This document shows, in pieces, positions 16,377-60,044 of a stretch of DNA of 64,000 nt (its first letter is position 1; each line of letters starts with the position of its first letter). This DNA is from Alphaproteobacteria bacterium (GTDB taxonomy: Bacteria > Pseudomonadota > Alphaproteobacteria > UBA828). The stretch spans positions 512,001 through 576,000 of the forward strand of contig CAXXVO010000004.1 of NCBI GenBank assembly GCA_963422645.2, written 5' to 3'. The notes below the pieces were generated by a model that saw only the letters and a program-made list of their open reading frames with translations, searched no databases and was not told where the DNA came from. The position numbers and the translations under genes were made by a program.

Positions 16377-17585
16377 ATGAATGAGATGCCGCCGGCGCCC
16401 GACGAGACGGCGCTTCGGCTCGGCCGGCTGGCGCGGCTACGCGCCGAGATGGCGCGGTTGGGTTTCGCGGCGTTGGTGCTGACCGATCCGCACAATGTGC
16501 GCTACGCGACCGGCGCCCGAAACATGATGCCCTTCGTCCTGCGCAATCCGGCGCGCTACGTGTTCGTGCCCCTGGAGGGGCCGGTTGTCTTGTTCGAGTT
16601 CGCGGGTTGCGAGCACCTGGAACGCGACAATCCGGCGGTTGACGATATCCGAGTCTCCACAACGGTCTCTTACGTTGCGCGGGGGCCGCTGCTCGATGAG
16701 ACGGCCAAGGTCTGGGCCGGAGAGATCGCTGCGCTGATGCGCCAGCACTGCCCGGGCGAAACGCGGATCGGGTTGGAGCGCATCGATGCGCGTGCCGTAG
16801 GCTATCTGGCGGAACAGGGGTTCGCGATCCTAGATGCTCAAGCGCCGGCGGAGAGGGCACGCTCCATCAAGACACCGGAGGAGATTGTTTGCTCTAAGCG
16901 CTCGATGGCGTGCGTTATGGCGGCAGAGAGAGCGTTGGAGGAGGCCATCAGGCCCGGGATCACTGAGAACGCGCTGTGGGCGGAGTTCCATCGTCACGTG
17001 ATCGCGAACGACGGGGACTACGTGGAGACGCGGTTGCTCAGCTCGGGCGAGAGAACCAACCCCTGGTTTCAGGAGACCGGCCCGCACGTAATCCGTGCCG
17101 GCGACTTGGTGGCCCACGATACCGACGTGATCGGACCGCACGGTTACTACGCAGATTTCTCACGCACCTTCCTTTGCGGCGAAGAGGGGCCGACGCCGGA
17201 ACAGCGAACGCTCTATCGTCTCGCCCACGACCAGATCCAGCACAATATGGCGCTGATCAAACCGGGGCGAACCTTTCGGGAAATTACGGAAGCGGCCTGG
17301 AAAATGCCCGCGCCATATTACGCAAGACGGTATTACCTCATGATTCACGGCATCGGGATGACCGGCGAGTATCCTTACATCGTGTACGAAGCCGATTACG
17401 ACGCCGGGCAGGACTACGACGGCATCGTCGAGCCCAACATGACGCTCTGCGTGGAAAGCTTCATCGGTCACGAGGATGGAGGCGAAGGGGTAAAGCTGGA
17501 GCAACAGGTTCTGGTTACCAAGACAGGCTTCGAACTGATGAGCACGTACCCTTTCGACGAAAGGTTGCTCGGCCGCGAGGTGTGA
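16377..17585 (+). CDS. M24-family metallopeptidase-fold protein, DddP (DMSP lyase)-like
   Basis: DPHNVRYATG, ETRLLSSGERTNPWFQE, DTD.IG..GY..D.SR, HGIG, CVES, KLEQQVL match recalled DddP-clade motifs. Confidence 0.75.
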   Translation: MNEMPPAPDETALRLGRLARLRAEMARLGFAALVLTDPHNVRYATGARNMMPFVLRNPARYVFVPLEGPVVLFEFAGCEHLERDNPAVDDIRVSTTVSYVARGPLLDETAKVWAGEIAALMRQHCPGETRIGLERIDARAVGYLAEQGFAILDAQAPAERARSIKTPEEIVCSKRSMACVMAAERALEEAIRPGITENALWAEFHRHVIANDGDYVETRLLSSGERTNPWFQETGPHVIRAGDLVAHDTDVIGPHGYYADFSRTFLCGEEGPTPEQRTLYRLAHDQIQHNMALIKPGRTFREITEAAWKMPAPYYARRYYLMIHGIGMTGEYPYIVYEADYDAGQDYDGIVEPNMTLCVESFIGHEDGGEGVKLEQQVLVTKTGFELMSTYPFDERLLGREV

Positions 17586-17587
17586 GG

Positions 17588-18208
17588 ATGGGGACGCTCT
17601 TTCCTCCGCTTCCGCCTGGCCCCTTCGACATCATCTACGTCGACCCTCCGTGGGACTATCGCGGGCAGCTCCAGCACGCCGGCGAGGGAACCCAGGATAC
17701 GGGCGGTGCGATCAGGCACTATCCAACGGTGACCCTGCACGACCTCAAGACCTTGAATGTCCCCGGTATTTGTGCGCAAGACTGCCTGCTATTCATGTGG
17801 GCGACCAACCCGCATCTTGATCAAGCCATTGACTTGGGAAAGGCGTGGGACTTTGCATGGGCGACGGTTGCGTTTGTGTGGGATAAAGTGAGGGTGAATC
17901 CCGGCTTTTATACCATGAGCCAATGCGAGTTGTGCCTCGTGTTCAAGAGGGGGAAGATCCCGTCCCCGCGTGGCGCGAGGAATGTTCGCCAACTCGTCAC
18001 CGCTAAGCGCGGGGCTCACTCGCAAAAGCCGGACGAGGTGTGGCTCCGCATCGAGAAAATGTTCCCACTCCTCCGCAAGATCGAACTGTTTGCTCGTGAA
18101 ACCGACGAAGAGAGTCTCGTCGATCACCAGTGGACGAGATGGGGGTTCGAAGCCCGTGATGCAGAAGCATCTGGAGTGGCGCGAGAGTTGGCAGGCGGAG
18201 GCCGCTGA
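17588..18208 (+). CDS. MT-A70 family adenine methyltransferase (M.MunI-like)
   Basis: FDIIYVDPPW, LFMWAT, FVWDK, HSQKPDE, KIELFAR; start at ATG 17588, just after the upstream stop. Confidence 0.9.
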   Translation: MGTLFPPLPPGPFDIIYVDPPWDYRGQLQHAGEGTQDTGGAIRHYPTVTLHDLKTLNVPGICAQDCLLFMWATNPHLDQAIDLGKAWDFAWATVAFVWDKVRVNPGFYTMSQCELCLVFKRGKIPSPRGARNVRQLVTAKRGAHSQKPDEVWLRIEKMFPLLRKIELFARETDEESLVDHQWTRWGFEARDAEASGVARELAGGGR

Positions 18209-18236
18209 GAGGGGGGGAGAAGCGTCGAGAAAATTC
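18159..18236 (+). pseudogene. N-terminal fragment of a MunI-like type II restriction endonuclease
   Basis: MQKHLEWRESWQAEAAERGGEA resembles the recalled R.MunI N-terminus (L..R.NWQ..A....A); cut by the IS66 left end. Confidence 0.55.
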
Positions 18237-18321
18237 GTAACTACCCAGGTACCCCAATCCTGAGTTGAGGACGGTGATTATGGCGGCGGCCGCGGTCTGG
18301 TTCTGCCACCGCGATTGGTTC

Positions 18322-18350
18322 TTGACCTCATAGAGTTGCGGGACTATGGA
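18322..18350 (+). promoter_or_regulatory. Candidate sigma70 promoter inside the IS66 left end
   Basis: TTGACC-17 bp-TATGGA upstream of the GGGAG RBS and ATG 18379. Confidence 0.4.
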
Positions 18351-18378
18351 CTGCTCTCTCGCGTGACGGGAGCGGTCC

Positions 18379-19044
18379 ATGGGGTATTTCGGCTCGAAGG
18401 CGACAGCAGGTCTGTGCCAAGCGCTGATTGCGCTGATGCCGCCGCACTCCGTCTACATCGAAAGCCACCTTGGGGGCGGGGCGCTGACGAAGCGCAAGCC
18501 GCCGGCCGTGCGTTCGATCGGCATCGACCGCGATGCGCAGGCGCTCGAGGCCTTCGTCTGCGACTACCCGGTCGATCTGGTTCACGGCTGTGCCCATGAC
18601 TTCCTGGCCTCGTTCCCGTTCCTGGGCCCGGAGCTGGTTTACAGCGATCCGCCCTATCTGCACGCGACCCGCCGCTCGGCGCAGCGCTACCGCTTCGAGT
18701 ACGAGGAGGCCGGCCACGTCGCGCTTCTCGCGCTGCTCAAGGCTCTGCCCTGCCAGGTCATGATCTCGGGCCATCCGTCGGCGCTCTATGACGAGGTGCT
18801 GGCGGGATGGCGCCGGCTGGCGCTGCAGGTCACGACCCAGGGTCTGGTGCGAACCGAGGTCGTCTGGTTCAACTACGCCCCCGACCGGATGCATTGGGCC
18901 AGCCACGCAGGCCGGAACTTCACCGACCGCCAGCGCATCAAGCGCAAGGCAGCCAACTGGGGCCGGCGCTACCAGGCCTTGCCGCCGGGCGAACGCCTCG
19001 CCGTGCTCGCCGCCATGATGGCCGTCGAGGCCGAAGACACGTGA
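18379..19044 (+). CDS. Compact DNA adenine methyltransferase (D12/Dam-like motif order)
   Basis: YFGSK, YIESHLGGG (SAM-binding motif I), IGIDRD, VYSDPPY catalytic motif, VMISG, TEVVWFNY. Confidence 0.88.
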   Translation: MGYFGSKATAGLCQALIALMPPHSVYIESHLGGGALTKRKPPAVRSIGIDRDAQALEAFVCDYPVDLVHGCAHDFLASFPFLGPELVYSDPPYLHATRRSAQRYRFEYEEAGHVALLALLKALPCQVMISGHPSALYDEVLAGWRRLALQVTTQGLVRTEVVWFNYAPDRMHWASHAGRNFTDRQRIKRKAANWGRRYQALPPGERLAVLAAMMAVEAEDT

Positions 19045-20311
19045 CGGTGTCGCACTGGCACGAAGACCTCGCCGCCCGTAACGAGGCCTTCTGCTGCCTG
19101 AAGGAGCTTCTCGAGCCATCATCCCTCGCAACCACTGTCGTCGTTGCCGTCCGGGAATGGGGGCAGGGGCTGCTGCGATCAGCCACCGCGCTCGCCCGGG
19201 AAAATGCCGCACTCGAGCAGGAGAACGCGGCCCTGCGCGAGCGCATCGCCGAACTCGAGCGCAGCGCGGCCCTCAACAGCACCACAAGCAGCAAGCCCCC
19301 CGCCAGCGACGGGCTCAAGAAGAAAAGCGGAGCCCAGAGGCGCACCCAAAGCCAGCGCGGAAAGTCCGGCGGGCCCAGTGGCGGCCAGCCCGGCCACAAG
19401 GGAACCACCCTCGCGCGGAGCGACAGCCCGGACCGTGTCGTCGATCACCACCCCTCCACCTGTTCCGGCTGTGGCGTCGAGCTCTCGGACGCCGACCGGC
19501 AAGGCGCGCCCGCCTGTCGGCAGGTCTTCGACGTACCCGAGCCGCAGCCTCTCGAGGTCACCGAACACCGCGCTCATCGCTGCCTCTGCGGCGCATGCGG
19601 CACGCTGACACGAGCCGCCTTCCCGCCGGGCGTCACCGCCCCGGTCCAGTACGGCCCTCGCATCACCGCTTGGGTGAGTTACCTGCTGTACGCCCAGTTC
19701 GTGCCCGAGAAGCGTCTGGCCGAACTCATGAGCGACATCTTCGCGGTGTCCATCTCCACTGCCACGATCGCCGCCATGGGCCGGCGCACAGCGCAGCGCT
19801 TCGAGGGCTTCCTCGACCATGTCGCCGATCTGATCCGCACGCAGGCGCCGGTCAAGCACCTCGACGAGACCGGCCTGCGTATCGCCGCCCGTACCCGCTG
19901 GCTCCATGTGCTGTGCACCCCGTTGCTCACCGTCCTGCGCATCGGCGAGGGACGCGGCGATGTCGAAAAGAACCTGAAAGGCATCCTCGTCCACGACGAC
20001 TTCGCCCCCTACTTCACCATCAAGGGCGTCCGCCACGGCGCCTGCAACGCACATCACCTGCGCGAACTCCAGGCCCTGATCGACATCGAGAAGGAGGAAT
20101 GGGCGGCGAGCATGCACCGCCTGCTTCAGCGCGCGCGCAGGGCCGCCCGCTTCGCCCGTGAGAAAGACCGTCAAGTCCCCGCCTCCCTGGTGGCCCGCAT
20201 CTCAAGGGCATGGGACCGTATCCTCGAAGAAGCCATCGCCTTCCATGAGGCCCAACCGCCGCTCCAGATCGCAAAGCGAGGGCGAAAGAAACGCCGCATC
20301 GGCCACAACCT
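19041..20311 (+). pseudogene. IS66 transposase, 5' part (interrupted by ISX)
   Basis: Coiled coil, NSTTSSKPPASD, GGQPGHKG, Cys zinc finger, HLDETG, LVHDDF, CNAHHLREL; GTG start overlaps the MTase TGA. Confidence 0.9.
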
Positions 20312-21248
20312 CAGACTTCCTGACCTCTGCTGATTTTAGGTGACACGAGCCGCGCGGATTCCGAGGCCCCGTCGATGTCGTAGACTATGCGCAGACGGGT
20401 GCCGGGGAAGACCGTTTCGGTGGCGTTCAGGTCGCTCAGAACCGCATCGATCCAACGGTCGCAGGCGTCGTTTGCGAGGCCAAGAATGTGGACCCGCAGG
20501 AGGCCATTGCCAGGATCCGGCAGGATGTCGGCATCGGCGGTGAGCAGCGCTTGAAGCAGTTTCCGGGGATGGGGCTTGTGGCCCTGCGCCTGCATGACGG
20601 GAAGCATCATGCGGGTTTCGGCGCGGTAGGCGATCATCCGGATGACGTCGAGGAGGAGGCGCTCGCGCGCGGGCAAGGCATCGAGCTGCTCGGCTTCGTC
20701 GAGGTCGCCGGCCCGGCAGTGCTTGGGCGTCTCCCTGCGGCTGGCCCTGACGATGTCGCGGACATCCTGGAGGTCCCTGACTTCCCTCCTGAGTTCCGCC
20801 GTCGGCTGCTTCTTCCGGGCCGTGTCGGCGATGCGGTTGCGCAGGCGGCCAAGCTGGCGGTCGAGGCGATGGATTGCCTTGTCATAGGCCCGCCGCAGCG
20901 GGTTGACGACCATGGCGGCGGGATCGAGAGGCTCGAGCTCGTGGGTCGGCAGGGCGTCGAGATTGAACTCGTCACGCATGTACTTGAAGAAGTTCTCCTG
21001 CGACCAGCGCGAGAACATGGCGCCCGCAACCTCAGCCATCGGCTTGTGCGGATCGGTGGTGATCAGCGGCACCTGACGGCCGTTGTCGAGCAGGCGGCGG
21101 ATCTGGCGCACCCTGAAGCCGTTCGGCAACGTCACCGGCTTCTCAGCCAGCCGCATGGTGGCGCTGCCGTCCGCCGCCGGTCCGTGAATGGGAACGGTCA
21201 TCGCGCCGAAGTCCTCGGCCGGCCAGTCCTCGCCCCTGAAGTTCTTGT

Positions 21249-23407
21249 CCCAAGTTGGCACTTTTTCCGTTTGTTCGGGGCCGAATTGGCCAGGTTTTTC
21301 CGGCTGACACACCAGATATAGCGTTGACGAGAAGGGCACGCCCCTACATTTGCGATTGCCGTCTCGAACTCCCTTTGTAGTGCCAGGGAATGGTGGGTTT
21401 GCAGGATTTCCCTTGACCCCACCACCAAAGCCGACATATCTGAACCCGCCACGACCAAAACGTGCCGGGCGACATGTTCATCAGGGCAACCAAGACCCAC
21501 ACTACCGAAGGCAAGCCGGTCCGCAGCCATCGCCTCGTGCTCTCGCAGCGCATCGGCGACAAGGTCAGGCAGCGCACGCTTCTCAACCTCGGCACCGACT
21601 ATCCGGTGCCGAAGGAGAAATGGCGCGAAGTTGCCGGACTCGCCGAGGCGCTGCTCAACGGCCGCCCGCCGCTGCTCGAAGCCGCGCCGGACGTGCAGGC
21701 CGCAGCCGAGGACATCGTCGCCAAGCTCAGGGCCAGGGGGTTCCGCCCCGAGGCGATACAGGAAGAGGCGCGCAAGCCCGACATCGCCACCGTCGACCTC
21801 GATACCCTGGAGCACGAGAACCCGCGCACGGTCGGCTGCGAGCGCCTGTGCCTCAAGGCCCTCGACGACCTCGGCTTCGCCGACATCCTCCACGGCCTCG
21901 ATATCAAGGGCCGCGACGGGCGCATCGCCAGCGCGCTGATCGTCGCCAGGATGGTCCATCCCGCCAGCGAGCGTGACACCAGCCGCTGGCTGCGCCGCGA
22001 CAGCGCGACCGCCGAGCTCCTGGGGCTGGAGGGCGACCGCAAGGCGCTGCGGCGCAAGACGCTCTACCGCATCGGCGACCTGCTCTGGCGCCACCGGGAC
22101 GCCATTCAGCGGGAGCTGTTCAACCGCGAGCGCGCGCTGCTCGACCTGCCCGAAACGATCGCCTTTTACGATCTCACCAATGTCCACTACCACGGCCACA
22201 CCCACGGCCAGCTTCCCAGGTTCGGGCGCTCCAAGCAGAAGCGCGACGACTGTCCGCTGATCACGCTGGCGCTGGCGCTCGACGGCGCAGGCTTCCCGCG
22301 CAGTTGCGAGATCCTGCCGGGCAACGTGAGCGAGCCGGGCACGCTGGAGGACGCGCTGGTCAGGCTCGAGGCGGTGTGCGGCGGCACGGCGCCGAAGCCC
22401 ACGGTGGTCATGGACGCGGGCATCGCCACCGAGGAGAACGTCGCGTGGCTGGGCGAGCAGGGCTACGACTGGATCGCGGTCAGCCGCGGCGCCAGGCCGC
22501 CGCTGCCCGAGGGCGGGCCCGAGGCTCTGCTGATCACCAGCGCGCGGCACGAGGTGCGCGCCTGGCGGCTTGCCAGCGAGGACGGCGAGGCGCGGCTCTA
22601 CGTCGTCAGCGAGGGCAAGAAGAAGGCCGAGAACGCGATCATCGGCCTCAGGCGGAACCGCTTCGAGGCGGCGCTGGAAAGGCTCCATAGCGGCCTGCCG
22701 GTCAAGGGCCGCCTCAAGCGCTACGACAGGGTGCTGGAGAGCATTGGCCGTCTCAAGCAGCGCTTCTCCACCGTCGCCAGACACTACGAGGTCACGGTCG
22801 AGAAGGCGAAAACCGGCCCCAACGCCGCCGCCGTGCGCTTCAAGCGCAGGCCGCAATACGACGAGGCCGACGAGGGCGCCGGCGCCTATGTGCTGCGCAC
22901 CAGCCACGTCGACTGGGATATCGAGACGATCCTGCGGACCTACTGGCGCATCACCGACATCGAGGCCACCTTCCGCAGCCTGAAATCCGAGCTCGGCCTT
23001 CGCCCGATCTGGCACCAGCTCGACCGTCGCATCGCGGCCCACCTGCTGATCGCCGTGCTGGCCTATCACGCCGTGCATCTGATCCGTACCCGACTGGCCG
23101 CGCGGGGCATCCACAAGTGCTGGGCATCGATCCGCGAGGGCATGCGGACCTGGGTGCGGATCACCACGCGACTGCGCCAGACCGACGGCACCTTGATCGT
23201 CAACCGCCAGGACACGCGCCCGGCCGCCGAGGTCGCCCAAATCTCCTCGGCGGCGGGTGTTGACCCCGCCATCCACCGCACGAGGACCCGCCTGACGAGC
23301 TGACAGAATCTCACAAAATGTAGTGCCATGTTGGAATCGGCAGAGAAAAATATTGCGCCATATCAAAGCGATAAACGACAGCAGAACACAAAAAGTGCCA
23401 ACCTGGG
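21249..23407 (+). mobile_element. IS1634-family element, copy 1 (2159 bp)
   Basis: IR CCCAAGTTGGCACTTTTT / AAAAAGTGCCAACCTGGG; TTGT duplicated at 21245-21248 and 23408-23411. Confidence 0.92.
21474..23303 (+). CDS. IS1634-family DDE transposase
   Basis: MFIR..K, RLV.S.R.G.KVRQRTLLNLG, FYDLTN, FGRSKQKR.D, VVMDAG, IEATFRSLKSELGLRPIWHQ. Confidence 0.9.
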   Translation: MFIRATKTHTTEGKPVRSHRLVLSQRIGDKVRQRTLLNLGTDYPVPKEKWREVAGLAEALLNGRPPLLEAAPDVQAAAEDIVAKLRARGFRPEAIQEEARKPDIATVDLDTLEHENPRTVGCERLCLKALDDLGFADILHGLDIKGRDGRIASALIVARMVHPASERDTSRWLRRDSATAELLGLEGDRKALRRKTLYRIGDLLWRHRDAIQRELFNRERALLDLPETIAFYDLTNVHYHGHTHGQLPRFGRSKQKRDDCPLITLALALDGAGFPRSCEILPGNVSEPGTLEDALVRLEAVCGGTAPKPTVVMDAGIATEENVAWLGEQGYDWIAVSRGARPPLPEGGPEALLITSARHEVRAWRLASEDGEARLYVVSEGKKKAENAIIGLRRNRFEAALERLHSGLPVKGRLKRYDRVLESIGRLKQRFSTVARHYEVTVEKAKTGPNAAAVRFKRRPQYDEADEGAGAYVLRTSHVDWDIETILRTYWRITDIEATFRSLKSELGLRPIWHQLDRRIAAHLLIAVLAYHAVHLIRTRLAARGIHKCWASIREGMRTWVRITTRLRQTDGTLIVNRQDTRPAAEVAQISSAAGVDPAIHRTRTRLTS

Positions 23408-24993
23408 TTGTGCCAGGTCAGGCAGGCGACGCCGCGCCTCGCCAGCCGGCGGAACAGATCCGGGCTCCAGCCCTCGCGGTCGAAGACCAGGGTGAGCGCC
23501 GGCTGGCCGGGATGCTCGGCGGTCAGGTCCGGCGCCCCGGCGCCAACGATCCCAAGCTCCTGCAGCGCCGGCACCACGTCGGCTTCGATGGCCGCGACCA
23601 TCTTCGGGTCCAGCGGCTTGTGCAGACAGAGCAGCGGCTTGCCGCCCAGAGCGTTGATCCAGTAGCTGGCGCTCGCCGGCAGGCACAGCTTCTCGCGCGA
23701 GACGAAGTGCTTGGGCAAGCGCCCCTTGCGGCCGGAGTAGACCTTGACGTGCCCGTCGATGGCCAGCGTCGCCCAGAGCTCCGGCTCGTCGGCCTTGCCA
23801 GCGCCTGGCAAGGGCGAGCTGCCACGCCCGCACGCCGGCCTCGTCGTCGGCGATGAGAGCGATCTTGCGGCGCAGCGTCTTGACCTCGGGGCAGCGATCG
23901 AGGCCGAGAATGGCGCCCCATTCGCCCGGCGCCTGGTAGCGCAGGCTCTCGGGGTTGCGCACCCGCGCCAAGGTCATGAAGGCCAGGAAGAGCAGGATCG
24001 TAGGCAAGCCGTAATAGCCCTTCGGCAGCAATGGCAGGAGACCGGTCTCGGAGAGAAGACCTTCCTTCAGCAGGGCCGGCAGGGCGGCGAGCACGCCGCC
24101 GAAGCGGACACCGCGGGCGGCGGCGGCGAACTGCGGTTCGACCGGCCCCGCCTGTCCACAACTGGCCAGAACCCGAGCCGGAACATCGCAAGTCGCACGC
24201 CCCATCGGCGCCTGCCGGTCCCGCCGATCGCGCGCGCTGCGATCCGTTTGCGGCTGCGCTTCCAGCCCCGGCGCCGTCTCCGGCCCCGGGGCACCGGTAC
24301 TCTCTTCATCGACACGGCCTTCAGGAGCCGCACCCGCGTCAGGCGGCGCAGCCAGCGCTGAGCGTCCGGGCTCCCCATCCGCCTCCGTGTTGCCGATCAG
24401 TCCCTGACGGCGCCACTTGTTGACCGATGGCGCTGACACGCCGAGAACCCGGGCCGCCGCAGAGCCGCTCAGGCCCGATGCCAGCAACGCCGTCGCCTTC
24501 TCCGCCAACTCCGGAGTGAACACCGACGGCCCGCGACCGCGCCGGGGCTTCATGAACCCCGCTTCGCCCTCGGCCAGGTAGCGCCGTCGTGCGCGCTGCA
24601 CCGTCGCGCGCGAGACAGCGAAAGCGTCAGCCAGTTCCTGCGGCGAGACCGCGCTGATCGCCGCGAGGCGGCCGATCCGCAAGAGCATGGCCGTGCGGTC
24701 ATCGGCGGCGTGGCTGTCAAAGGGAATGAGGTTGGAAAAGTAGGTGAAGGTGTCGTCCGAGATCAGGACGGCGAAGCAGCTGTTGCCGATCGAGACCGCC
24801 TCTGGAGGGCACATTGGGAGGGTACTGGGCATGGTTGAGACCCCGTGCAATTGGTATCAAATTATAATATCAGACCTCGGGCGCGACACCCAGCGAAAAA
24901 CCGCCTGAAACAACCGAAATGTATCAGAATTCAAGGAGTTCCCGGCACGCTGCCCAGAACAGCCAGCATCACGAGGTCAGGAAGTCTGAACCT

Positions 24994-25261
24994 CGCGCGC
25001 CGCCTTCAAAAGCATAAGGAGGGCTGCCTGCGCTTCCTCACCGACCTGCGCACGCCGTTCACGAATAACGAGGCGGAGCGTGACATCCGTATGAACAAAG
25101 TGCATGAGAAGATCTCAGGCGGCTTCCGCTCCCTGCAAGGCGCCTGCAACTTCGCCGGAATGCGCAGCGTCATCGTCACCGCTCGAAAGCAAGGCTGGAA
25201 CATCCTGCAAATCCTGGCGCACCCGGAACCGATGCAGCTGATCCCTATACTGCGCTCCTGA
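24994..25261 (+). pseudogene. IS66 transposase, 3' part
   Basis: PFTNNEAERDIR.K...KISGGFRS; joins in frame with 19041-20311 to give 512 aa. Confidence 0.9.
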
Positions 25262-25426
25262 ACTTCTCCGGCTCATCCTGAGTATCGCTGTCCTCTCATC
25301 TTGTTCGCGACGCGGCGTTCATCATCCTCTCGCGCTCAAGAGAGTAGGCACCCCCGCGGCGTGGGGGCGTTGACGCAAAAGGAACTGGCTTGTTCCATAA
25401 GAGAGAGGGGGTACCTGGGCAGTTAC

Positions 25427-25672
25427 GAAAATACTCGATCCAATAATGCTGCGGAATACCAGAGTCGATTAGAGTGATCGGAATTCAGCCTCAAAATGTC
25501 TTTCCAGATTGGTGAATTTTCGCAGATGAAGTTGCTCCCAATCCTTGCTACAGGAAAGAGATTATTAATTGGTATCAGAGGATCCAACCACTGTCCTGTT
25601 ATGGGGGAATATCATTGATTACGGACCAATCATCGATCACGTTGAAGAGTACGTGCGCCCCTCCTGTCGTAA
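25427..25672 (+). pseudogene. Decayed C-terminal part of a MunI-like restriction endonuclease
   Basis: Low-GC stretch. Frame from 25498 reads VFPDW*IFADEVAPNPCYRKEIINWY, an ungapped match to recalled R.MunI ILPFWVVFEGDITRDPKRVREITFWY; after a frameshift it reads VLLWGNIIDYGPIIDHVEEYVRP. Confidence 0.65.
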
Positions 25673-25769: not shown

Positions 25770-26381
25770 ATGAGGAAGGGGGTGCCGGGTAGCAAGGGAG
25801 GCTCAGTTGCCGTGAAGCGTCTCTGCTTCTTGGTTCCGCTGATCGTCCTGCTCTTCATCCCCGGAGCAAGCTGGGCTTTCTACAAGCCGGTGCGTGTCCT
25901 TGCGCCCGAACTCAATGGCGTGACGTGCGTCACCGATGCGATCTGCGTGGAAGATTTGGCGCGCTACGAGGAGGCGTCGGTCCTCTATGAGGAGGGCTTC
26001 ACGTTCGTGAATAAGGTGGTGGGTGCAATTGAGGAACCGCCGCGCGTCATTTTCTGCTCCACGCAAGGCTGCTTCGAGTCCTTTGGATTCGACCGGGCGG
26101 CCGCACATACAGTGGGCGTGTCGGGCATCGTTGTGGGTCCTCGGGGATGGAAGCGCTACTACATGCGCCACGAGATGATCCACCATCTGCAAGCGGAGCG
26201 TCTCGGTGTTTTCGAGCAGTGGCGCAGTCCCGATTGGCTCAAGGAGGGAATGGCTTACGCGATGAGCCGGGACCCTCGACCCGTTCTGTCCGAGCCCTGG
26301 CAAGGATACCGTTCGCAGTTCGAGGCATGGTCGCAATCGGTGGGAAGGGAGCGTCTATGGATAGAAGCGGCAAGGCTGTGA
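25770..26381 (+). CDS. Exported or membrane-anchored protein with HExxH zinc-metallopeptidase motif
   Basis: Hydrophobic N-terminus, RHEMIHH, then WLKEGMA (gluzincin-like). True start may be GTG 25812. Confidence 0.6.
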   Translation: MRKGVPGSKGGSVAVKRLCFLVPLIVLLFIPGASWAFYKPVRVLAPELNGVTCVTDAICVEDLARYEEASVLYEEGFTFVNKVVGAIEEPPRVIFCSTQGCFESFGFDRAAAHTVGVSGIVVGPRGWKRYYMRHEMIHHLQAERLGVFEQWRSPDWLKEGMAYAMSRDPRPVLSEPWQGYRSQFEAWSQSVGRERLWIEAARL

Positions 26382-26428
26382 AGCGCCAATCTGGCGGCCG
26401 TGCCAGTGTTTCGCGCCAACACGGTGCG

Positions 26429-27619
26429 ATGGAGCACAGCACCCCGCCCTGCGATCTCGACGCGGTAAGTCTCTATCGGCTCGGGCGCGTGCGCGAGGCC
26501 CTGGCGGCGCGGGACCTCGCCGGCATCATCCTCTACGACCCGGTGAACATCCGCTACGCGACCGATTCGCCGAACATGCAGGTCTGGTGCACCCACAACG
26601 AGGCGCGCTACCTCTACGTGTCGGCCGAAGGCCTGGTCACGCTCTTCGAATTCGGCGGGGGCAGTGACCTGCTCACTTCGGGACTTCCCACAATCGACGA
26701 GGTCCGCGCCGCGACCTTCGTGCTCTACTTCATCGCTGGCGGGCGACAGGCGGACAACGCGCGGGCCTGGGCGGCCGAGCTGGATTCGGTGATCCGCGAG
26801 CAAGGCGGCGGCAACAAGCGTATCGCCATCGACCGCGTCGGACCGGTGGGCTTCATGGAGATGCAGCGCCTCGGGTATGAAATCCACGACGGCTTCGAGG
26901 TGATGGAGAACGCCCGGACGATCAAGTCGGCGGGCGAGATCACCCTGATGCGCCATGCCATCGCCGTCTGCGAGCAGGCCATTCAGGGGATGCGGGAGGC
27001 GCTCAGGCCCGGCATCACGGAGAATGCGCTCTGGGCCGAGCTCCACCGCGGCAACATCGCGGGCGGCGGCGAGTGGATCGAGTGCCGCCTGCTGGCCTCC
27101 GGGCCGCGCACCAACCCGTGGTTCCGCGAGTCCTCGATGCGGGTCATCGAGCGCGGCGACATCGTGGCCTTCGACACCGACCTTGTGGGCCCCTACGGCT
27201 ACTGCTGCGACATCTCGCGCACCTGGGTGTGCGACGCGCGTCCCAGCGACGAACAGCGGCGCATCTACGCCGAGGCCCACGCTCACATTCAGCACGACAA
27301 GGCGCTGCTGAAGCCCGGTGTGAACTTCCGCGAGCTGACCGAGCTGCTCCGCCCCCTAGGCGACGAATTCGTCGAGGGCCGCTATTCGGTGTCGATGCAC
27401 GGGGTGGGGCTTTGCGACGAATACCCGGCGATTCCCTACCCGCAAGACTATGAGCCCGGAGACGACGGCGTACTGCAGGCGGGGATGGTAATGTGCGTCG
27501 AAGGCCTCGCCGCACCCGCTGGCGGTCGCGAGGCGGTCAAGCTGGAGGAACAGGTGCTGATCACTGAAGATGGCTGCGAGCAACTCTCATCCTACCCGTT
27601 GGAGGAGGACTGGCTGTAG
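26429..27619 (+). CDS. dddP: DddP-like M24-family protein (candidate DMSP lyase)
   Basis: DPVNIRYATDSPNMQVW..HN, GGEWIECRLLASGPRTNPWF.E, FDTDLVG.YG...DISR, MHGVGLCDEYP closely match recalled DddP motifs. Confidence 0.7.
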   Translation: MEHSTPPCDLDAVSLYRLGRVREALAARDLAGIILYDPVNIRYATDSPNMQVWCTHNEARYLYVSAEGLVTLFEFGGGSDLLTSGLPTIDEVRAATFVLYFIAGGRQADNARAWAAELDSVIREQGGGNKRIAIDRVGPVGFMEMQRLGYEIHDGFEVMENARTIKSAGEITLMRHAIAVCEQAIQGMREALRPGITENALWAELHRGNIAGGGEWIECRLLASGPRTNPWFRESSMRVIERGDIVAFDTDLVGPYGYCCDISRTWVCDARPSDEQRRIYAEAHAHIQHDKALLKPGVNFRELTELLRPLGDEFVEGRYSVSMHGVGLCDEYPAIPYPQDYEPGDDGVLQAGMVMCVEGLAAPAGGREAVKLEEQVLITEDGCEQLSSYPLEEDWL

Positions 27620-29294: not shown

Positions 29295-31453
29295 CCCAAG
29301 TTGGCACTTTTTCCGTTTGTTCGGGGCCGAATTGGCCAGGTTTTTCCGGCTGACACACCAGATATAGCGTTGACGAGAAGGGCACGCCCCTACATTTGCG
29401 ATTGCCGTCTCGAACTCCCTTTGTAGTGCCAGGGAATGGTGGGTTTGCAGGATTTCCCTTGACCCCACCACCAAAGCCGACATATCTGAACCCGCCACGA
29501 CCAAAACGTGCCGGGCGACATGTTCATCAGGGCAACCAAGACCCACACTACCGAAGGCAAGCCGGTCCGCAGCCATCGCCTCGTGCTCTCGCAGCGCATC
29601 GGCGACAAGGTCAGGCAGCGCACGCTTCTCAACCTCGGCACCGACTATCCGGTGCCGAAGGAGAAATGGCGCGAAGTTGCCGGACTCGCCGAGGCGCTGC
29701 TCAACGGCCGCCCGCCGCTGCTCGAAGCCGCGCCGGACGTGCAGGCCGCAGCCGAGGACATCGTCGCCAAGCTCAGGGCCAGGGGGTTCCGCCCCGAGGC
29801 GATACAGGAAGAGGCGCGCAAGCCCGACATCGCCACCGTCGACCTCGATACCCTGGAGCACGAGAACCCGCGCACGGTCGGCTGCGAGCGCCTGTGCCTC
29901 AAGGCCCTCGACGACCTCGGCTTCGCCGACATCCTCCACGGCCTCGATATCAAGGGCCGCGACGGGCGCATCGCCAGCGCGCTGATCGTCGCCAGGATGG
30001 TCCATCCCGCCAGCGAGCGTGACACCAGCCGCTGGCTGCGCCGCGACAGCGCGACCGCCGAGCTCCTGGGGCTGGAGGGCGACCGCAAGGCGCTGCGGCG
30101 CAAGACGCTCTACCGCATCGGCGACCTGCTCTGGCGCCACCGGGCCGCCATTCAGCGGGAGCTGTTCAACCGCGAGCGCGCGCTGCTCGACCTGCCCGAA
30201 ACGATCGCCTTTTACGATCTCACCAATGTCCACTACCACGGCCACACCCACGGCCAGCTTCCCAGGTTCGGGCGCTCCAAGCAGAAGCGCGACGACTGTC
30301 CGCTGATCACGCTGGCGCTGGCGCTCGACGGCGCAGGCTTCCCGCGCAGTTGCGAGATCCTGCCGGGCAACGTGAGCGAGCCGGGCACGCTGGAGGACGC
30401 GCTGGTCAGGCTCGAGGCGGTGTGCGGCGGCACGGCGCCGAAGCCCACGGTGGTCATGGACGCGGGCATCGCCACCGAGGAGAACGTCGCGTGGCTGGGC
30501 GAGCAGGGCTACGACTGGATCGCGGTCAGCCGCGGCGCCAGGCCGCCGCTGCCCGAGGGCGGGCCCGAGGCTCTGCTGATCACCAGCGCGCGGCACGAGG
30601 TGCGCGCCTGGCGGCTTGCCAGCGAGGACGGCGAGGCGCGGCTCTACGTCGTCAGCGAGGGCAAGAAGAAGGCCGAGAACGCGATCATCGGCCTCAGGCG
30701 GAACCGCTTCGAGGCGGCGCTGGAAAGGCTCCATAGCGGCCTGCCGGTCAAGGGCCGCCTCAAGCGCTACGACAGGGTGCTGGAGAGCATTGGCCGTCTC
30801 AAGCAGCGCTTCTCCACCGTCGCCAGACACTACGAGGTCACGGTCGAGAAGGCGAAAACCGGCCCCAACGCCGCCGCCGTGCGCTTCAAGCGCAGGCCGC
30901 AATACGACGAGGCCGACGAGGGCGCCGGCGCCTATGTGCTGCGCACCAGCCACGTCGACTGGGATATCGAGACGATCCTGCGGACCTACTGGCGCATCAC
31001 CGACATCGAGGCCACCTTCCGCAGCCTGAAATCCGAGCTCGGCCTTCGCCCGATCTGGCACCAGCTCGACCGTCGCATCGCGGCCCACCTGCTGATCGCC
31101 GTGCTGGCCTATCACGCCGTGCATCTGATCCGTACCCGACTGGCCGCGCGGGGCATCCACAAGTGCTGGGCATCGATCCGCGAGGGCATGCGGACCTGGG
31201 TGCGGATCACCACGCGACTGCGCCAGACCGACGGCACCTTGATCGTCAACCGCCAGGACACGCGCCCGGCCGCCGAGGTCGCCCAAATCTCCTCGGCGGC
31301 GGGTGTTGACCCCGCCATCCACCGCACGAGGACCCGCCTGACGAGCTGACAGAATCTCACAAAATGTAGTGCCATGTTGGAATCGGCAGAGAAAAATATT
31401 GCGCCATATCAAAGCGATAAACGACAGCAGAACACAAAAAGTGCCAACCTGGG
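29295..31453 (+). mobile_element. IS1634-family element, copy 2 (2159 bp)
   Basis: Same IRs as copy 1; CTGA duplicated at 29291-29294 and 31454-31457. Confidence 0.92.
29520..31349 (+). CDS. IS1634-family DDE transposase
   Basis: Protein identical to copy 1 except one Asp-to-Ala change (22099 A vs 30145 C). Confidence 0.9.
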   Translation: MFIRATKTHTTEGKPVRSHRLVLSQRIGDKVRQRTLLNLGTDYPVPKEKWREVAGLAEALLNGRPPLLEAAPDVQAAAEDIVAKLRARGFRPEAIQEEARKPDIATVDLDTLEHENPRTVGCERLCLKALDDLGFADILHGLDIKGRDGRIASALIVARMVHPASERDTSRWLRRDSATAELLGLEGDRKALRRKTLYRIGDLLWRHRAAIQRELFNRERALLDLPETIAFYDLTNVHYHGHTHGQLPRFGRSKQKRDDCPLITLALALDGAGFPRSCEILPGNVSEPGTLEDALVRLEAVCGGTAPKPTVVMDAGIATEENVAWLGEQGYDWIAVSRGARPPLPEGGPEALLITSARHEVRAWRLASEDGEARLYVVSEGKKKAENAIIGLRRNRFEAALERLHSGLPVKGRLKRYDRVLESIGRLKQRFSTVARHYEVTVEKAKTGPNAAAVRFKRRPQYDEADEGAGAYVLRTSHVDWDIETILRTYWRITDIEATFRSLKSELGLRPIWHQLDRRIAAHLLIAVLAYHAVHLIRTRLAARGIHKCWASIREGMRTWVRITTRLRQTDGTLIVNRQDTRPAAEVAQISSAAGVDPAIHRTRTRLTS

Positions 31454-53730: not shown

Positions 53731-54168
53731 GTAACTGCCCAGGTACCCCCTCTCTCTTATGGAACAAGCCAGTTCCTTTTGCGTCAACGCCCCCACGCCG
53801 CGGGGGTGCCTACTCTCTTGAGCGCGAGAGGATGATGAACGCCGCGTCGCGAACAAGATGAGAGGACAGCGATACTCAGGATGAGCCGGAGAAGTTCAGG
53901 AGCGCAGTATAGGGATCAGCTGCATCGGTTCCGGGTGCGCCAGGATTTGCAGGATGTTCCAGCCTTGCTTTCGAGCGGTGACGATGACGCTGCGCATTCC
54001 GGCGAAGTTGCAGGCGCCTTGCAGGGAGCGGAAGCCGCCTGAGATCTTCTCATGCACTTTGTTCATACGGATGTCACGCTCCGCCTCGTTATTCGTGAAC
54101 GGCGTGCGCAGGTCGGTGAGGAAGCGCAGGCAGCCCTCCTTATGCTTTTGAAGGCGGCGCGCGAGGTT
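53731..54168 (-). mobile_element. IS66 right-end segment (438 bp), copy 2
   Basis: Reverse complement of 24989-25426, starting exactly at the IRR GTAACTGCCCAGGTACCCC; includes the transposase 3' fragment ending at 53896. Confidence 0.92.
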
Positions 54169-56683
54169 CAGACTTCCTGACCTCGTGATGCTGGCTGTTC
54201 TGGGCAGCGTGCCGGGAACTCCTTGAATTCTGATACATTTCGGTTGTTTCAGGCGGTTTTTCGCTGGGTGTCGCGCCCGAGGTCTGATATTATAATTTGA
54301 TACCAATTGCACGGTCTCAACCATGCCCAGTACCCTCCCAATGTGCCCTCCAGAGGCGGTCTCGATCGGCAACAGCTGCTTCGCCGTCCTGATCTCGGAC
54401 GACACCTTCACCTACTTTTCCAACCTCATTCCCTTTGACAGCCACGCCGCCGATGACCGCACGGCCATGCTCTTGCGGATCGGCCGCCTCGCGGCGATCA
54501 GCGCGGTCTCGCCGCAGGAACTGGCTGACGCTTTCGCTGTCTCGCGCGCGACGGTGCAGCGCGCACGACGGCGCTACCTGGCCGAGGGCGAAGCGGGGTT
54601 CATGAAGCCCCGGCGCGGTCGCGGGCCGTCGGTGTTCACTCCGGAGTTGGCGGAGAAGGCGACGGCGTTGCTGGCATCGGGCCTGAGCGGCTCTGCGGCG
54701 GCCCGGGTTCTCGGCGTGTCAGCGCCATCGGTCAACAAGTGGCGCCGTCAGGGACTGATCGGCAACACGGAGGCGGATGGGGAGCCCGGACGCTCAGCGC
54801 TGGCTGCGCCGCCTGACGCGGGTGCGGCTCCTGAAGGCCGTGTCGATGAAGAGAGTACCGGTGCCCCGGGGCCGGAGACGGCGCCGGGGCTGGAAGCGCA
54901 GCCGCAAACGGATCGCAGCGCGCGCGATCGGCGGGACCGGCAGGCGCCGATGGGGCGTGCGACTTGCGATGTTCCGGCTCGGGTTCTGGCCAGTTGTGGA
55001 CAGGCGGGGCCGGTCGAACCGCAGTTCGCCGCCGCCGCCCGCGGTGTCCGCTTCGGCGGCGTGCTCGCCGCCCTGCCGGCCCTGCTGAAGGAAGGTCTTC
55101 TCTCCGAGACCGGTCTCCTGCCATTGCTGCCGAAGGGCTATTACGGCTTGCCTACGATCCTGCTCTTCCTGGCCTTCATGACCTTGGCGCGGGTGCGCAA
55201 CCCCGAGAGCCTGCGCTACCAGGCGCCGGGCGAATGGGGCGCCATTCTCGGCCTCGATCGCTGCCCCGAGGTCAAGACGCTGCGCCGCAAGATCGCTCTC
55301 ATCGCCGACGACGAGGCCGGCGTGCGGGCGTGGCAGCTCGCCCTTGCCAGGCGCTGGCAGGCGCCGACGAGCCGGAGCTCTGGGCGACGCTGGCCATCGA
55401 CGGGCACGTCAAGGTCTACTCCGGCCGCAAGGGGCGCTTGCCCAAGCACTTCGTCTCGCGCGAGAAGCTGTGCCTGCCGGCGAGCGCCAGCTACTGGATC
55501 AACGCTCTGGGCGGCAAGCCGCTGCTCTGTCTGCACAAGCCGCTGGACCCGAAGATGGTCGCGGCCATCGAAGCCGACGTGGTGCCGGCGCTGCAGGAGC
55601 TTGGGATCGTTGGCGCCGGGGCGCCGGACCTGACCGCCGAGCATCCCGGCCAGCCGGCGCTCACCCTGGTCTTCGACCGCGAGGGCTGGAGCCCGGATCT
55701 GTTCCGCCGGCTGGCGAGGCGCGGCGTCGCCTGCCTGACCTGGCACAAGAACTTCAGGGGCGAGGACTGGCCGGCCGAGGACTTCGGCGCGATGACCGTT
55801 CCCATTCACGGACCGGCGGCGGACGGCAGCGCCACCATGCGGCTGGCTGAGAAGCCGGTGACGTTGCCGAACGGCTTCAGGGTGCGCCAGATCCGCCGCC
55901 TGCTCGACAACGGCCGTCAGGTGCCGCTGATCACCACCGATCCGCACAAGCCGATGGCTGAGGTTGCGGGCGCCATGTTCTCGCGCTGGTCGCAGGAGAA
56001 CTTCTTCAAGTACATGCGTGACGAGTTCAATCTCGACGCCCTGCCGACCCACGAGCTCGAGCCTCTCGATCCCGCCGCCATGGTCGTCAACCCGCTGCGG
56101 CGGGCCTATGACAAGGCAATCCATCGCCTCGACCGCCAGCTTGGCCGCCTGCGCAACCGCATCGCCGACACGGCCCGGAAGAAGCAGCCGACGGCGGAAC
56201 TCAGGAGGGAAGTCAGGGACCTCCAGGATGTCCGCGACATCGTCAGGGCCAGCCGCAGGGAGACGCCCAAGCACTGCCGGGCCGGCGCGACCTCGACGAA
56301 GCCGAGCAGCTCGATGCCTTGCCCGCGCGCGAGCGCCTCCTCCTCGACGTCATCCGGATGATCGCCTACCGCGCCGAAACCCGCATGATGCTTCCCGTCA
56401 TGCAGGCGCAGGGCCACAAGCCCCATCCCCGGAAACTGCTTCAAGCGCTGCTCACCGCCGATGCCGACATCCTGCCGGATCCTGGCAATGGCCTCCTGCG
56501 GGTCCACATTCTTGGCCTCGCAAACGACGCCTGCGACCGTTGGATCGATGCGGTTCTGAGCGACCTGAACGCCACCGAAACGGTCTTCCCCGGCACCCGT
56601 CTGCGCATAGTCTATGACATCGACGGGGCCTCGGAATCCGCGCGGCTCGTGTCACCTAAAATCAGCAGAGGTCAGGAAGTCTG
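54169..56683 (+). mobile_element. ISX copy 2 (2515 bp); transposase 54323-56684 with two frameshifts
   Basis: Both 16-bp IRs; left flank AGGTT, right flank AGTCT (no duplication). Confidence 0.92.
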
Positions 56684-56741
56684 AGTCTACGTGGTACGGA
56701 GCGGTCCCGGATCGTATGGGGCCGTTTCCGGCCGTTCGATT

Positions 56742-56757
56742 TTGGCGCACATTTTGC
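56742..56757 (+). promoter_or_regulatory. Possible sigma54 -24/-12 promoter in an orphan spacer
   Basis: TTGGCGCACATTTTGC has GG-N10-GC spacing. Confidence 0.3.
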
Positions 56758-56983
56758 GGCTGCTCCGAGTGGCCGACTAGCCCACTCCCCACATCTTGCT
56801 GGCCGGCGGTCGCGCACGTCACCCCAAACGCCCAAGCCAACATTTGGCCACCGCTTCGGCGCAAGTGGATGATTGGATGTGGAAAATTTCAATTGTCCAC
56901 TCTGCCACGCGAGGTGGCAAGAGTGCCATGACCGCGCGCTGGGTGCGCCGGGTACCACCTGCGGGCACCACATTGGATATTTC

Positions 56984-57421
56984 GTAACTGCCCAGGTACC
57001 CCCTCTCTCTTATGGAACAAGCCAGTTCCTTTTGCGTCAACGCCCCCACGCCGCGGGGGTGCCTACTCTCTTGAGCGCGAGAGGATGATGAACGCCGCGT
57101 CGCGAACAAGATGAGAGGACAGCGATACTCAGGATGAGCCGGAGAAGTTCAGGAGCGCAGTATAGGGATCAGCTGCATCGGTTCCGGGTGCGCCAGGATT
57201 TGCAGGATGTTCCAGCCTTGCTTTCGAGCGGTGACGATGACGCTGCGCATTCCGGCGAAGTTGCAGGCGCCTTGCAGGGAGCGGAAGCCGCCTGAGATCT
57301 TCTCATGCACTTTGTTCATACGGATGTCACGCTCCGCCTCGTTATTCGTGAACGGCGTGCGCAGGTCGGTGAGGAAGCGCAGGCAGCCCTCCTTATGCTT
57401 TTGAAGGCGGCGCGCGAGGTT
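56984..57421 (-). mobile_element. IS66 right-end segment (438 bp), copy 3
   Basis: Matches 53731-54168 and starts exactly at the IRR. Confidence 0.92.
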
Positions 57422-59934
57422 CAGACTTCCTGACCTCGTGATGCTGGCTGTTCTGGGCAGCGTGCCGGGAACTCCTTGAATTCTGATACATTTCGGTTGT
57501 TTCAGGCGGTTTTTCGCTGGGTGTCGCGCCCGAGGTCTGATATTATAATTTGATACCAATTGCACGGTCTCAACCATGCCCAGTACCCTCCCAATGTGCC
57601 CTCCAGAGGCGGTCTCGATCGGCAACAGCTGCTTCGCCGTCCTGATCTCGGACGACACCTTCACCTACTTTTCCAACCTCATTCCCTTTGACAGCCACGC
57701 CGCCGATGACCGCACGGCCATGCTCTTGCGGATCGGCCGCCTCGCGGCGATCAGCGCGGTCTCGCCGCAGGAACTGGCTGACGCTTTCGCTGTCTCGCGC
57801 GCGACGGTGCAGCGCGCACGACGGCGCTACCTGGCCGAGGGCGAAGCGGGGTTCATGAAGCCCCGGCGCGGTCGCGGGCCGTCGGTGTTCACTCCGGAGT
57901 TGGCGGAGAAGGCGACGGCGTTGCTGGCATCGGGCCTGAGCGGCTCTGCGGCGGCCCGGGTTCTCGGCGTGTCAGCGCCATCGGTCAACAAGTGGCGCCG
58001 TCAGGGACTGATCGGCAACACGGAGGCGGATGGGGAGCCCGGACGCTCAGCGCTGGCTGCGCCGCCTGACGCGGGTGCGGCTCCTGAAGGCCGTGTCGAT
58101 GAAGAGAGTACCGGTGCCCCGGGGCCGGAGACGGCGCCGGGGCTGGAAGCGCAGCCGCAAACGGATCGCAGCGCGCGCGATCGGCGGGACCGGCAGGCGC
58201 CGATGGGGCGTGCGACTTGCGATGTTCCGGCTCGGGTTCTGGCCAGTTGTGGACAGGCGGGGCCGGTCGAACCGCAGTTCGCCGCCGCCGCCCGCGGTGT
58301 CCGCTTCGGCGGCGTGCTCGCCGCCCTGCCGGCCCTGCTGAAGGAAGGTCTTCTCTCCGAGACCGGTCTCCTGCCATTGCTGCCGAAGGGCTATTACGGC
58401 TTGCCTACGATCCTGCTCTTCCTGGCCTTCATGACCTTGGCGCGGGTGCGCAACCCCGAGAGCCTGCGCTACCAGGCGCCGGGCGAATGGGGCGCCATTC
58501 TCGGCCTCGATCGCTGCCCCGAGGTCAAGACGCTGCGCCGCAAGATCGCTCTCATCGCCGACGACGAGGCCGGCGTGCGGGCGTGGCAGCTCGCCCTTGC
58601 CAGGCGCTGGCAGGCGCCGACGAGCCGGAGCTCTGGGCGACGCTGGCCATCGACGGGCACGTCAAGGTCTACTCCGGCCGCAAGGGGCGCTTGCCCAAGC
58701 ACTTCGTCTCGCGCGAGAAGCTGTGCCTGCCGGCACGCGCCAGCTACTGGATCAACGCTCTGGGCGGCAAGCCGCTGCTCTGTCTGCACAAGCCGCTGGA
58801 CCCGAAGATGGTCGCGGCCATCGAAGCCGACGTGGTGCCGGCGCTGCAGGAGCTTGGGATCGTTGGCGCCGGGGCGCCGGACCTGACCGCCGAGCATCCC
58901 GGCCAGCCGGCGCTCACCCTGGTCTTCGACCGCGAGGGCTGGAGCCCGGATCTGTTCCGCCGGCTGGCGAGGCGCGGCGTCGCCTGCCTGACCTGGCACA
59001 AGAACTTCAGGGGCGAGGACTGGCCGGCCGAGGACTTCGGCGCGATGACCGTTCCCATTCACGGACCGGCGGCGGACGGCAGCGCCACCATGCGGCTGGC
59101 TGAGAAGCCGGTGACGTTGCCGAACGGCTTCAGGGTGCGCCAGATCCGCCGCCTGCTCGACAACGGCCGTCAGGTGCCGCTGATCACCACCGATCCGCAC
59201 AAGCCGATGGCTGAGGTTGCGGGCGCCATGTTCTCGCGCTGGTCGCAGGAGAACTTCTTCAAGTACATGCGTGACGAGTTCAATCTCGACGCCCTGCCGA
59301 CCCACGAGCTCGAGCCTCTCGATCCCGCCGCCATGGTCGTCAACCCGCTGCGGCGGGCCTATGACAAGGCAATCCATCGCCTCGACCGCCAGCTTGGCCG
59401 CCTGCGCAACCGCATCGCCGACACGGCCCGGAAGAAGCAGCCGACGGCGGAACTCAGGAGGGAAGTCAGGGACCTCCAGGATGTCCGCGACATCGTCAGG
59501 GCCAGCCGCAGGGAGACGCCCAAGCACTGCCGGGCCGGCGACCTCGACGAAGCCGAGCAGCTCGATGCCTTGCCCGCGCGCGAGCGCCTCCTCCTCGACG
59601 TCATCCGGATGATCGCCTACCGCGCCGAAACCCGCATGATGATTCCCGTCATGCAGGCGCAGGGCCACAAGCCCCATCCCCGGAAACTGCTTCAAGCGCT
59701 GCTCACCGCCGATGCCGACATCCTGCCGGATCCTGGCAATGGCCTCCTGCGGGTCCACATTCTTGGCCTCGCAAACGACGCCTGCGACCGTTGGATCGAT
59801 GCGGTTCTGAGCGACCTGAACGCCACCGAAACGGTCTTCCCCGGCACCCGTCTGCGCATAGTCTACGACATCGACGGGGCCTCGGAATCCGCGCGGCTCG
59901 TGTCACCTAAAATCAGCAGAGGTCAGGAAGTCTG
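57422..59934 (+). mobile_element. ISX copy 3 (2513 bp); transposase 57576-59935 with one frameshift
   Basis: Both IRs; left flank AGGTT, right flank AACCT. Confidence 0.92.
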
Positions 59935-60044
59935 AACCTATACAGTCAAGCGGAGATCAACGACGCGCCGACGGCGAAACGGCACCGACGGCAAGCAACA
60001 TCAGCACGCACTCAGAACTGGCGGCGGGGTACCTGGGTAGTTAC
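59935..60044 (-). mobile_element. Left end of a related IS66 isoform
   Basis: GGGGTACCTGGGTAGTTAC (60026-60044) is the exact reverse complement of the IRL at 18237; the internal 90 bp are only patchily similar to 18256-18340. Confidence 0.8.

Follow-up and report, generated by a model that had tools for sequence, protein, structure and literature searches.

A predicted DNA adenine methylase gene heads an IS66-family insertion sequence and recurs as a cassette before other transposases

A two-gene element of the IS66 family

Two arrangements of the IS66 family of insertion sequences (ISs) come closest to the one described here. The canonical IS66/IS679 type has tnpA, tnpB and tnpC. The ISBst12 type is the subgroup with a single open reading frame (ORF), defined in ISfinder by having only the transposase between the ends. 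It is named as a subgroup in a table of PMC8024623. In a 64,000-nucleotide stretch of the genome of an Alphaproteobacteria bacterium (the window; GenBank assembly GCA_963422645.2, contig CAXXVO010000004.1, positions 512,001 to 576,000), an IS66-family element was found that carries a predicted DNA adenine methylase gene in front of its transposase gene. The two genes form one tightly packed unit.

The element resembles ISBst12-type ISs in its transposase, which has DDE_Tnp_IS66, a DUF6444 N-terminal region and zf-IS66, in termini that start with GTAA, in 8-bp target duplications and in the lack of tnpA and tnpB. It differs in having two genes between its ends, the first being the methylase with its own predicted promoter. 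The canonical type shares the transposase family and the 8-bp duplications, but its three-gene arrangement is absent: the methylase alone stands between the left repeat and the transposase, the three genomic matches to TnpB_IS66 (PF05717), the only TnpB genes present, all lie outside this element, and the transposase is distant from those adjoining TnpB in a 39-row tree. An earlier reading of the window made from sequence alone (the sequence-only reading) had placed the methylase in the tnpA/tnpB slot. It does precede the transposase, but tnpA and tnpB are missing from the closest relatives both in this genome and on plasmids, and the methylase is therefore an addition and not a replacement. 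The transposase clusters with single-ORF relatives, and the element lies on a single-ORF, DUF6444-bearing branch of IS66 that lacks tnpA and tnpB.

Control of transposition by adenine methylation is known from IS10, IS50 and IS903, in which Dam methylation over the transposase promoter gates transposition. There the methylase is the host's and its site is GATC, whereas the element in the window brings its own enzyme. ISs with a non-transposase gene between their inverted repeats (tIS) are a further point of likeness, and the methylase lies inside the repeats in all 36 full-length copies in the genome. The difference is that the extra gene here stands upstream of the transposase, is translationally coupled to it, has its own predicted promoter and recurs across IS families. 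Methyltransferases are named among IS passenger genes in general by PMC7232470. A search of the full-text literature, with ISfinder and TnCentral outside its scope, turned up no account of such a methylase in an IS66 or IS701 element.

The element is a single 2508-bp IS interrupted by a nested IS. Joining 18237-20311 to 24994-25426, as the sequence-only reading had done, is exact because an intact copy elsewhere in the genome (C6:152970-155477) differs from the two joined pieces at a single base, element position 1338. The 19-bp inverted repeats agree at 18 of 19 positions. The transposase ORF begins at a GTG that overlaps the methylase stop codon by 4 nt (GTGA), is interrupted after 20311 and resumes at 24994. 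The features are as follows, with positions in the window.

18229..18236, no strand: left copy of the target duplication (GAAAATTC), identical to the right copy at 7 of 8 positions
18237..18255, plus strand: left terminal inverted repeat, GTAACTACCCAGGTACCCC, placed by the repeat pair and the ends of 36 copies
18322..18350, plus strand: predicted cassette promoter, placed by conservation among relatives, with -35 TTGACC (18322-18327), dyad arm CATAG (18329-18333), a 10-nt spacer, dyad arm CTATG (18344-18348) and -10-like TATGGA (18345-18350)
18368..18372, plus strand: Shine-Dalgarno-like GGGAG, 6 nt 5' of the methylase ATG, placed by reading the sequence
18379..19044, plus strand: DNA adenine methylase gene (221 aa), predicted to be compact and Dam-like from alignment, profiles, structure model and copies, with motif I and DPPY (residues 90-93) and no Dam-type target-recognition insert
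19041..20311, plus strand: first part of the IS66-family transposase gene, residues 1-423, placed by PF03050, DUF6444, zf-IS66 and NF033517
20312..24988, minus strand: nested 2518-bp IS with a PF21804-type transposase, itself split by an IS1634-family IS; its 5-bp duplication AACCT stands at 20307-20311 and 24989-24993
21249..23407: 2159-bp IS1634-family IS inside the nested IS, splitting it
24994..25261, plus strand: last part of the transposase gene, the C-terminal 89 residues and the stop codon (25259-25261), identical to intact copies
25408..25426, minus strand: right terminal inverted repeat (GTAACTGCCCAGGTACCCC on the minus strand), placed by the repeat pair and copy ends
25427..25434, no strand: right copy of the target duplication (GAAAATAC), read from the flank

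The transposase belongs to the IS66 family by curated DDE models above their cut-offs and by inverted repeats with 8-bp duplications in several copies. Against a cut-off of 23.1 bits, PF03050 gave 92 bits for residues 1-423 and 43.8 bits for the C-terminal piece; NF033517 gave 194.8 bits (cut-off 180). An N-terminal extension of about 50 residues is absent from a methylase-less sibling in the same genome.

The element is an active IS. The 5.9-Mb genome holds 36 full-length copies (2507-2511 bp, at least 99.7% identity), 22 of which have perfect 8-bp target duplications; the methylase-carrying IS66 element of about 2.5 kb proposed from the sequence is borne out by these copies. The duplicated 8-mers have a GC content of 37.5% against 67.2% for the genome, so the element favors AT-rich targets. 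The methylase ORF is intact in all 36 copies, as two protein variants (27 and 9 copies); the transposase has 512 aa in 28 copies and 513 aa in six and is truncated in two. The methylase is under purifying selection (dN/dS 0.08-0.33), as strong as that on the transposases. Its constant presence and this constraint show that the methylase belongs to the element.

Two sister families share the genome. The second, of 2461 bp, is about 82% identical, has an identical 19-bp left repeat and a methylase, and shows 8-bp duplications in 7 of 10 copies examined. The third, the sibling mentioned above, is 1888 bp long and lacks the methylase; its one 501-aa transposase is 59% identical to that of the window element, it has the 14-bp termini in common with the methylase-bearing IS, and it makes an 8-bp duplication. 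Near-full-length copies number 36, 19 and 84, respectively. A tblastn search counted 75 full-length methylase genes in the genome, of which 51 are at least 95% identical and 24 are 85-90% identical. Several copies of the methylase-bearing IS lie inside the AT-rich subterminal regions of the sibling (which is found, e.g., at C23:29460-30812, outside the window), and insertion there is the reason that many copies are without matching target duplications.

The protein is read as a minimal Dam-like N6-adenine methylase whose activity is predicted from motifs and fold. Pfam gave no match at E 0.01, PF02086 included, and TIGR00571 (dam) scored 21.1 bits, below its curated cut-off of 114.85; a few close homologues bear a precomputed PF02086 label. 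PHROGs and PADLOC models label it a DNA or Type II methyltransferase. The single sequence found no match among solved structures, but the family profile matched DpnM (E 1.1e-9) and also E. coli Dam, aligning as two segments and leaving out DpnM residues ~78-184. Motif I and DPPY stand in the Dam order with about 55 residues between them. In an alignment of 62 diverse members, D90, P91 and P92 are invariant, Y93, G5, K7, E28, G32 and G34 are nearly so, and a basic C-terminal segment is conserved. The structure model (pLDDT 92.3) has a Rossmann core followed by a two-helix hairpin (residues 181-220), and the folds closest to it, at a TM of about 0.5, are those of E. coli Dam, Mcbe1, DpnM and T4 Dam. 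Fold, motif order and DPPY are thus held in common with Dam, DpnM, T4 Dam and phage enzymes of the Hia5 type; unlike Dam, DpnM and T4 Dam, the window protein lacks the recognition insert of about 100 residues, and the helical target-recognition domain of Dam is absent from both the profile alignment and the model. The Hia5-type non-specific phage enzyme is described as keeping a divergent region at the position of the insert (PMC3299994).

A cassette before several transposase lineages

The promoter-methylase unit is a portable cassette that heads very divergent IS66 lineages and IS701-family elements. Loci were fetched from species genomes (80) and metagenomes (80), together with loci from a survey of the same class. 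The methylase was placed at 165 loci, and at 138 of these, many of which share genomes so that the counts are not independent, it was followed by an ORF of at least 240 aa. This ORF resembled the window transposase (IS66A) at 65 loci, belonged to a second IS66 group about 30% identical to it (IS66B) at 57, was an IS701-family transposase at 10 and an IS1634-family transposase at 3, and was a singleton at 3. The Pfam IS66 model matched 39 of 46 representatives of the downstream ORFs clustered at 90% identity; NCBIfam assigned the B group to IS66 and the third group to IS701. The 4-nt overlap of methylase and transposase was present at 51 of 65 IS66A-type and 4 of 10 IS701-type loci, and short gaps separate the genes in the IS66B type.

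These carriers are bounded units. IS66A-type units elsewhere with both ends visible had perfect duplications in 40 of 56 cases. IS66B units are ~2.25 kb long with ends GTAACTACTC(A/G)CCCC and had perfect 8-bp duplications in 6 of 25 cases with both ends visible. IS701-type units are bounded by repeats of their own (AGCTCGACTTTGTACATTT), and three copies at separate sites of one genome are flanked by the duplications TTA, TCA and TCA. The IS701-family carriers rule out the cassette as a speciality of IS66. They also contain a third gene, likewise conserved, that encodes ~95 aa and is oriented away from the methylase, pointing to the left end (L074:3475-4002 and L087:3614-3898, both minus strand); its matches to DUF3024 are weak and below the cut-off.

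Several other candidate carriers were rejected. IS1634, IS630 and IS91 neighbors (L173, L174, L177 and L080) could not be distinguished from nested insertions. L066, from the same set, and L069 each hold an IS66 left end that includes the methylase and breaks off behind it. An apparent IS1380 link came from ISSp1 lying right after the methylase on one Sphingobium plasmid; sister plasmids have other genes there, which points to a chance insertion.

The methylase and transposase trees differ in a way that reveals movement of the cassette. A methylase tree with 117 rows places the IS-borne proteins in a single clade of 96 (SH-aLRT 99). Three plasmid homologues and 18 of 19 added representatives of 50%-identity clusters, of unknown context, fall outside it; P0146 falls inside. 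One subclade holds the IS66A and IS701 carriers and the other the IS66B carriers. In the tree of 39 transposases of IS66, the eight rows of the A clade, which bear the methylase, group with support 100 and lie amid methylase-less single-ORF relatives, namely the third family of this genome and plasmid elements of Bradyrhizobium, Fischerella and Octadecabacter. The 22 rows of the B clade (likewise support 100) share a long stem beside a methylase-less Bacillus element. The methylase state changes at least three times on this tree, at least two of the changes being forced by well-supported branches. Within the A and B groups the two genes diverge at similar rates; between the groups the methylases are ~69% identical and the transposases ~30%. 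These state changes, the identity contrast between A and B and the IS701 carriers show several events of recruitment or exchange of the cassette.

Synonymous divergence was compared separately among IS66A-type elements. It is consistently lower in the methylase than in the linked transposase (0.31 versus 0.62 between the two methylase-bearing families of this genome), which hints at cassette exchange or homogenization between co-resident elements.

Relatives of the methylase were also counted in wider collections. Among 1.84 billion representatives, 5554 matched at E <=0.001 and 553 at E <=1e-30. The best 120 of 3704 matches in a large collection were 69-99% identical and ~220 aa long, often on contigs of 1-3 kb and in many-member clusters. 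At E <=1e-20 the methylase occurs in 5 of 401 sampled genomes of the window's class, this one counted, and in 0 of 3 in its family, a scattered distribution expected of a mobile element. Homologues at 45-56% identity were found in 196 plasmid records, 134 of them conjugative. In the 12 plasmid records that were opened, these homologues belong to the backbone (upf31.0 of IncP-1 is an example), and a transposase is never the constant neighbor. These orphan plasmid adenine methylases belong to the same family (the identity extends over 93% of the length), and some have the same layout of TTGACA plus dyad; they differ in being backbone genes without a linked transposase, in falling outside the IS-borne clade and, in the IncP case, in a CATCG/CGATG dyad. 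Homologues lying mostly outside IS ends had been named in advance as evidence against a methylase-carrying IS; this is the case at 56% identity or less, where the genes are plasmid backbone genes, and not in the clade at 65% or more, which is IS-borne.

The methylase gene has its own predicted, conserved promoter. The motif CTTGAC-NN-CATAG-N10-CTATG stands upstream of the methylase in IS66A, IS66B and IS701 carriers, and the right arm of the dyad overlaps a -10-like TATNNN that follows the -35 by 17 nt. In the window the predicted promoter reads TTGACC, a 17-nt spacer and TATGGA and ends 28 nt 5' of the ATG. Among distinct upstream regions of IS-borne methylases, which are related sequences and not independent counts, 90 of 105 have the full motif and 92 have the dyad. 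The spacing of the dyad is 10 nt in 92 of 92. CTTGAC, which the search pattern did not force, is 91-100% conserved among these 92; for the ten positions of the spacer the figure is 36-67%. Exact dyads number 59 in the genome, every one of them within a copy of the methylase-bearing element. Within the element the half-sites CATAG and CTATG occur only at positions 93, 108 and 550, none of them at the ends.

Plasmid homologues show a related layout. Of nine, one has CATAG-N10-CTATG, and three have TTGACA followed by CATCG-N10-CGATG, in which both arms are changed and the palindrome is kept. The latter three are IncP-type plasmids (L191, L196 and L197) with the motif 5' of upf31.0-like genes, and L191 has a second dyad farther upstream. 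This dyad may be an unrecognized operator of plasmid methylase genes.

Insertion site and nested elements

The element lies 28 nt past the stop codon of an MT-A70-family (DPPW) methylase gene (17588-18208; PF05063, E 1.5e-18). A lower-GC patch holds both, with M24 peptidase paralogues on either side (16377-17585 and 26147-27619). The sequence-only reading had placed the insertion inside a restriction gene, and this was not supported. The right flank has only short ORFs, and an ORF listing of that flank, a scan of the pre-insertion junction and a Pfam scan of a 62-aa flank piece, which had no match, found no interrupted restriction gene.

The nested 2518-bp IS (20312-21248 plus 23408-24988) has ~80 near-full genomic copies, two of them at 54169-56683 and 57422-59934 of the window. 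The 613-aa-transposase IS1634-family IS within it occurs twice in the window (21249-23407 and 29295-31453) and in 13 near-full copies genome-wide. Of the methylase-bearing IS, ten right-hand fragments start at element position 2071, and only four left-hand fragments end at 2076; this pattern suggests that the IS66 transposase gene contains a hot spot or that copies have recombined. The region 53731-60044 contains two 438-bp right ends of the methylase-bearing IS, each adjoining a copy of the 2518-bp IS; beyond one of these two copies come the initial 111 bp of the second methylase-bearing family. These chimeric flanks look like IS-mediated rearrangement.

Possible roles of the cassette

The explanation we favor for the layout of the element, at about even odds, is a self-regulated methylase operon that gates synthesis of the transposase. 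The transposase would have no promoter of its own and would be made only when the cassette promoter fires. The fixed-spacing dyad between the -35 and -10 would let the methylase silence its own promoter, either by binding the dyad or by methylating its half-sites. On arrival in a cell without this methylation, or just after replication, the operon would fire, the DNA would become methylated and a burst of transposition would follow, after which the operon would silence itself. Methylation of host DNA may additionally blunt restriction.

Several observations weigh against this proposal. The dyad is missing from 13 of 105 upstream regions, no dyad of this kind was found in 5 of 9 plasmid homologues, and the relatedness of the compared sequences tempers every motif count. 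A strict sigma-70 consensus scan of 18200-19200 gave 0 promoters and 0 terminators; the candidate promoter marked in the sequence-only reading draws its support from the conservation of TTGACC, the 17-nt spacer and TATGGA across relatives and none from the scan. A comparison of the ends of IS66 and IS701 carriers for a shared site, a candidate for methylation, found no obvious common motif. The methylase-less sibling with the same 14-bp termini outnumbers the methylase-bearing IS in the genome, so proliferation does not require the methylase in cis, though the enzyme could act in trans. Of 24 sequencing runs found, none was listed as RNA; three guessed to be RNA and one of DNA yielded a single 166-nt contig, from one guessed-RNA run, with no bearing on expression.

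The methylase may instead be a plain passenger from conjugative plasmids, where it would probably counter restriction, and an orphan enzyme that opposes restriction or alters the methylome. It would exert no control over transposition, the dyad would regulate the methylase only, and the benefit would go to the host or replicon bearing the IS. The backbone homologues without an adjoining transposase, the promoter-dyad layout of some of them and the naming of methyltransferases as a class of IS passenger gene (PMC7232470) are consistent with this explanation, as is the success of the methylase-less sibling unless the methylase acts in trans. A passenger would not be expected to keep a constant place upstream with an overlapping start, to be recruited at the same position by IS66 lineages and IS701, or to stay intact in 36 of 36 copies when one per cell is enough for a host benefit. 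We regard this explanation as the main rival and as somewhat unlikely.

Control at the ends of the element is a less probable explanation, and we consider it distinctly unlikely. The methylase would mark the ends or an intermediate, and the transposase would act only on ends that are unmethylated or, having just been replicated, hemimethylated, or excised and incoming DNA would be shielded from restriction. Host Dam control of IS10 and IS50 provides a precedent. An enzyme without the Dam recognition insert may have short or relaxed specificity and so reach any end sequence, and Dam-related phage enzymes are described as methylating nearly all adenines (PMC3299994). The IS66-type ends (GTAACTAC...) and IS701-type ends (AGCTCGACTTTGT...) nevertheless have no motif in common, and the half-sites of the dyad stand away from the ends. 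That the protein no longer methylates and serves only as a DNA-binding repressor or an accessory transposase subunit fits the missing target-recognition domain and the conserved basic hairpin, but is very improbable given the invariance or near-invariance of DPPY and the SAM-binding motif I and the pairing of one protein with unrelated IS66 and IS701 transposases, which argues against a specific protein partner.

The self-regulated operon can be carried one step further, to a reading we consider doubtful. The promoter-methylase unit would be an epigenetic switch, captured by unrelated DDE IS families, that senses new unmethylated DNA, fires the transposase on arrival in a naive cell or just after replication and turns off once the cell's DNA bears the methyl mark of the element. 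If true, the element would encode in this switch both a sensor of immigration and a brake on copy number.

The self-limitation of ISs is understood for a few model elements, and where DNA methylation is used, the enzyme comes from the host. The element in the window encodes its own, as part of a cassette that several transposase lineages recruited independently; full-length copies of the methylase gene number 75 in one genome. The protein is of interest as a minimal Dam-like enzyme without a recognizable target-recognition domain, and the portability of the cassette and its dyad promoter are the most interesting points. Should the cassette prove to gate transposition, mobile DNA would have in it a control device that is both general and portable, and in symbiont and sediment bacteria rich in ISs it would also give rise to heavy adenine methylation driven by the element.

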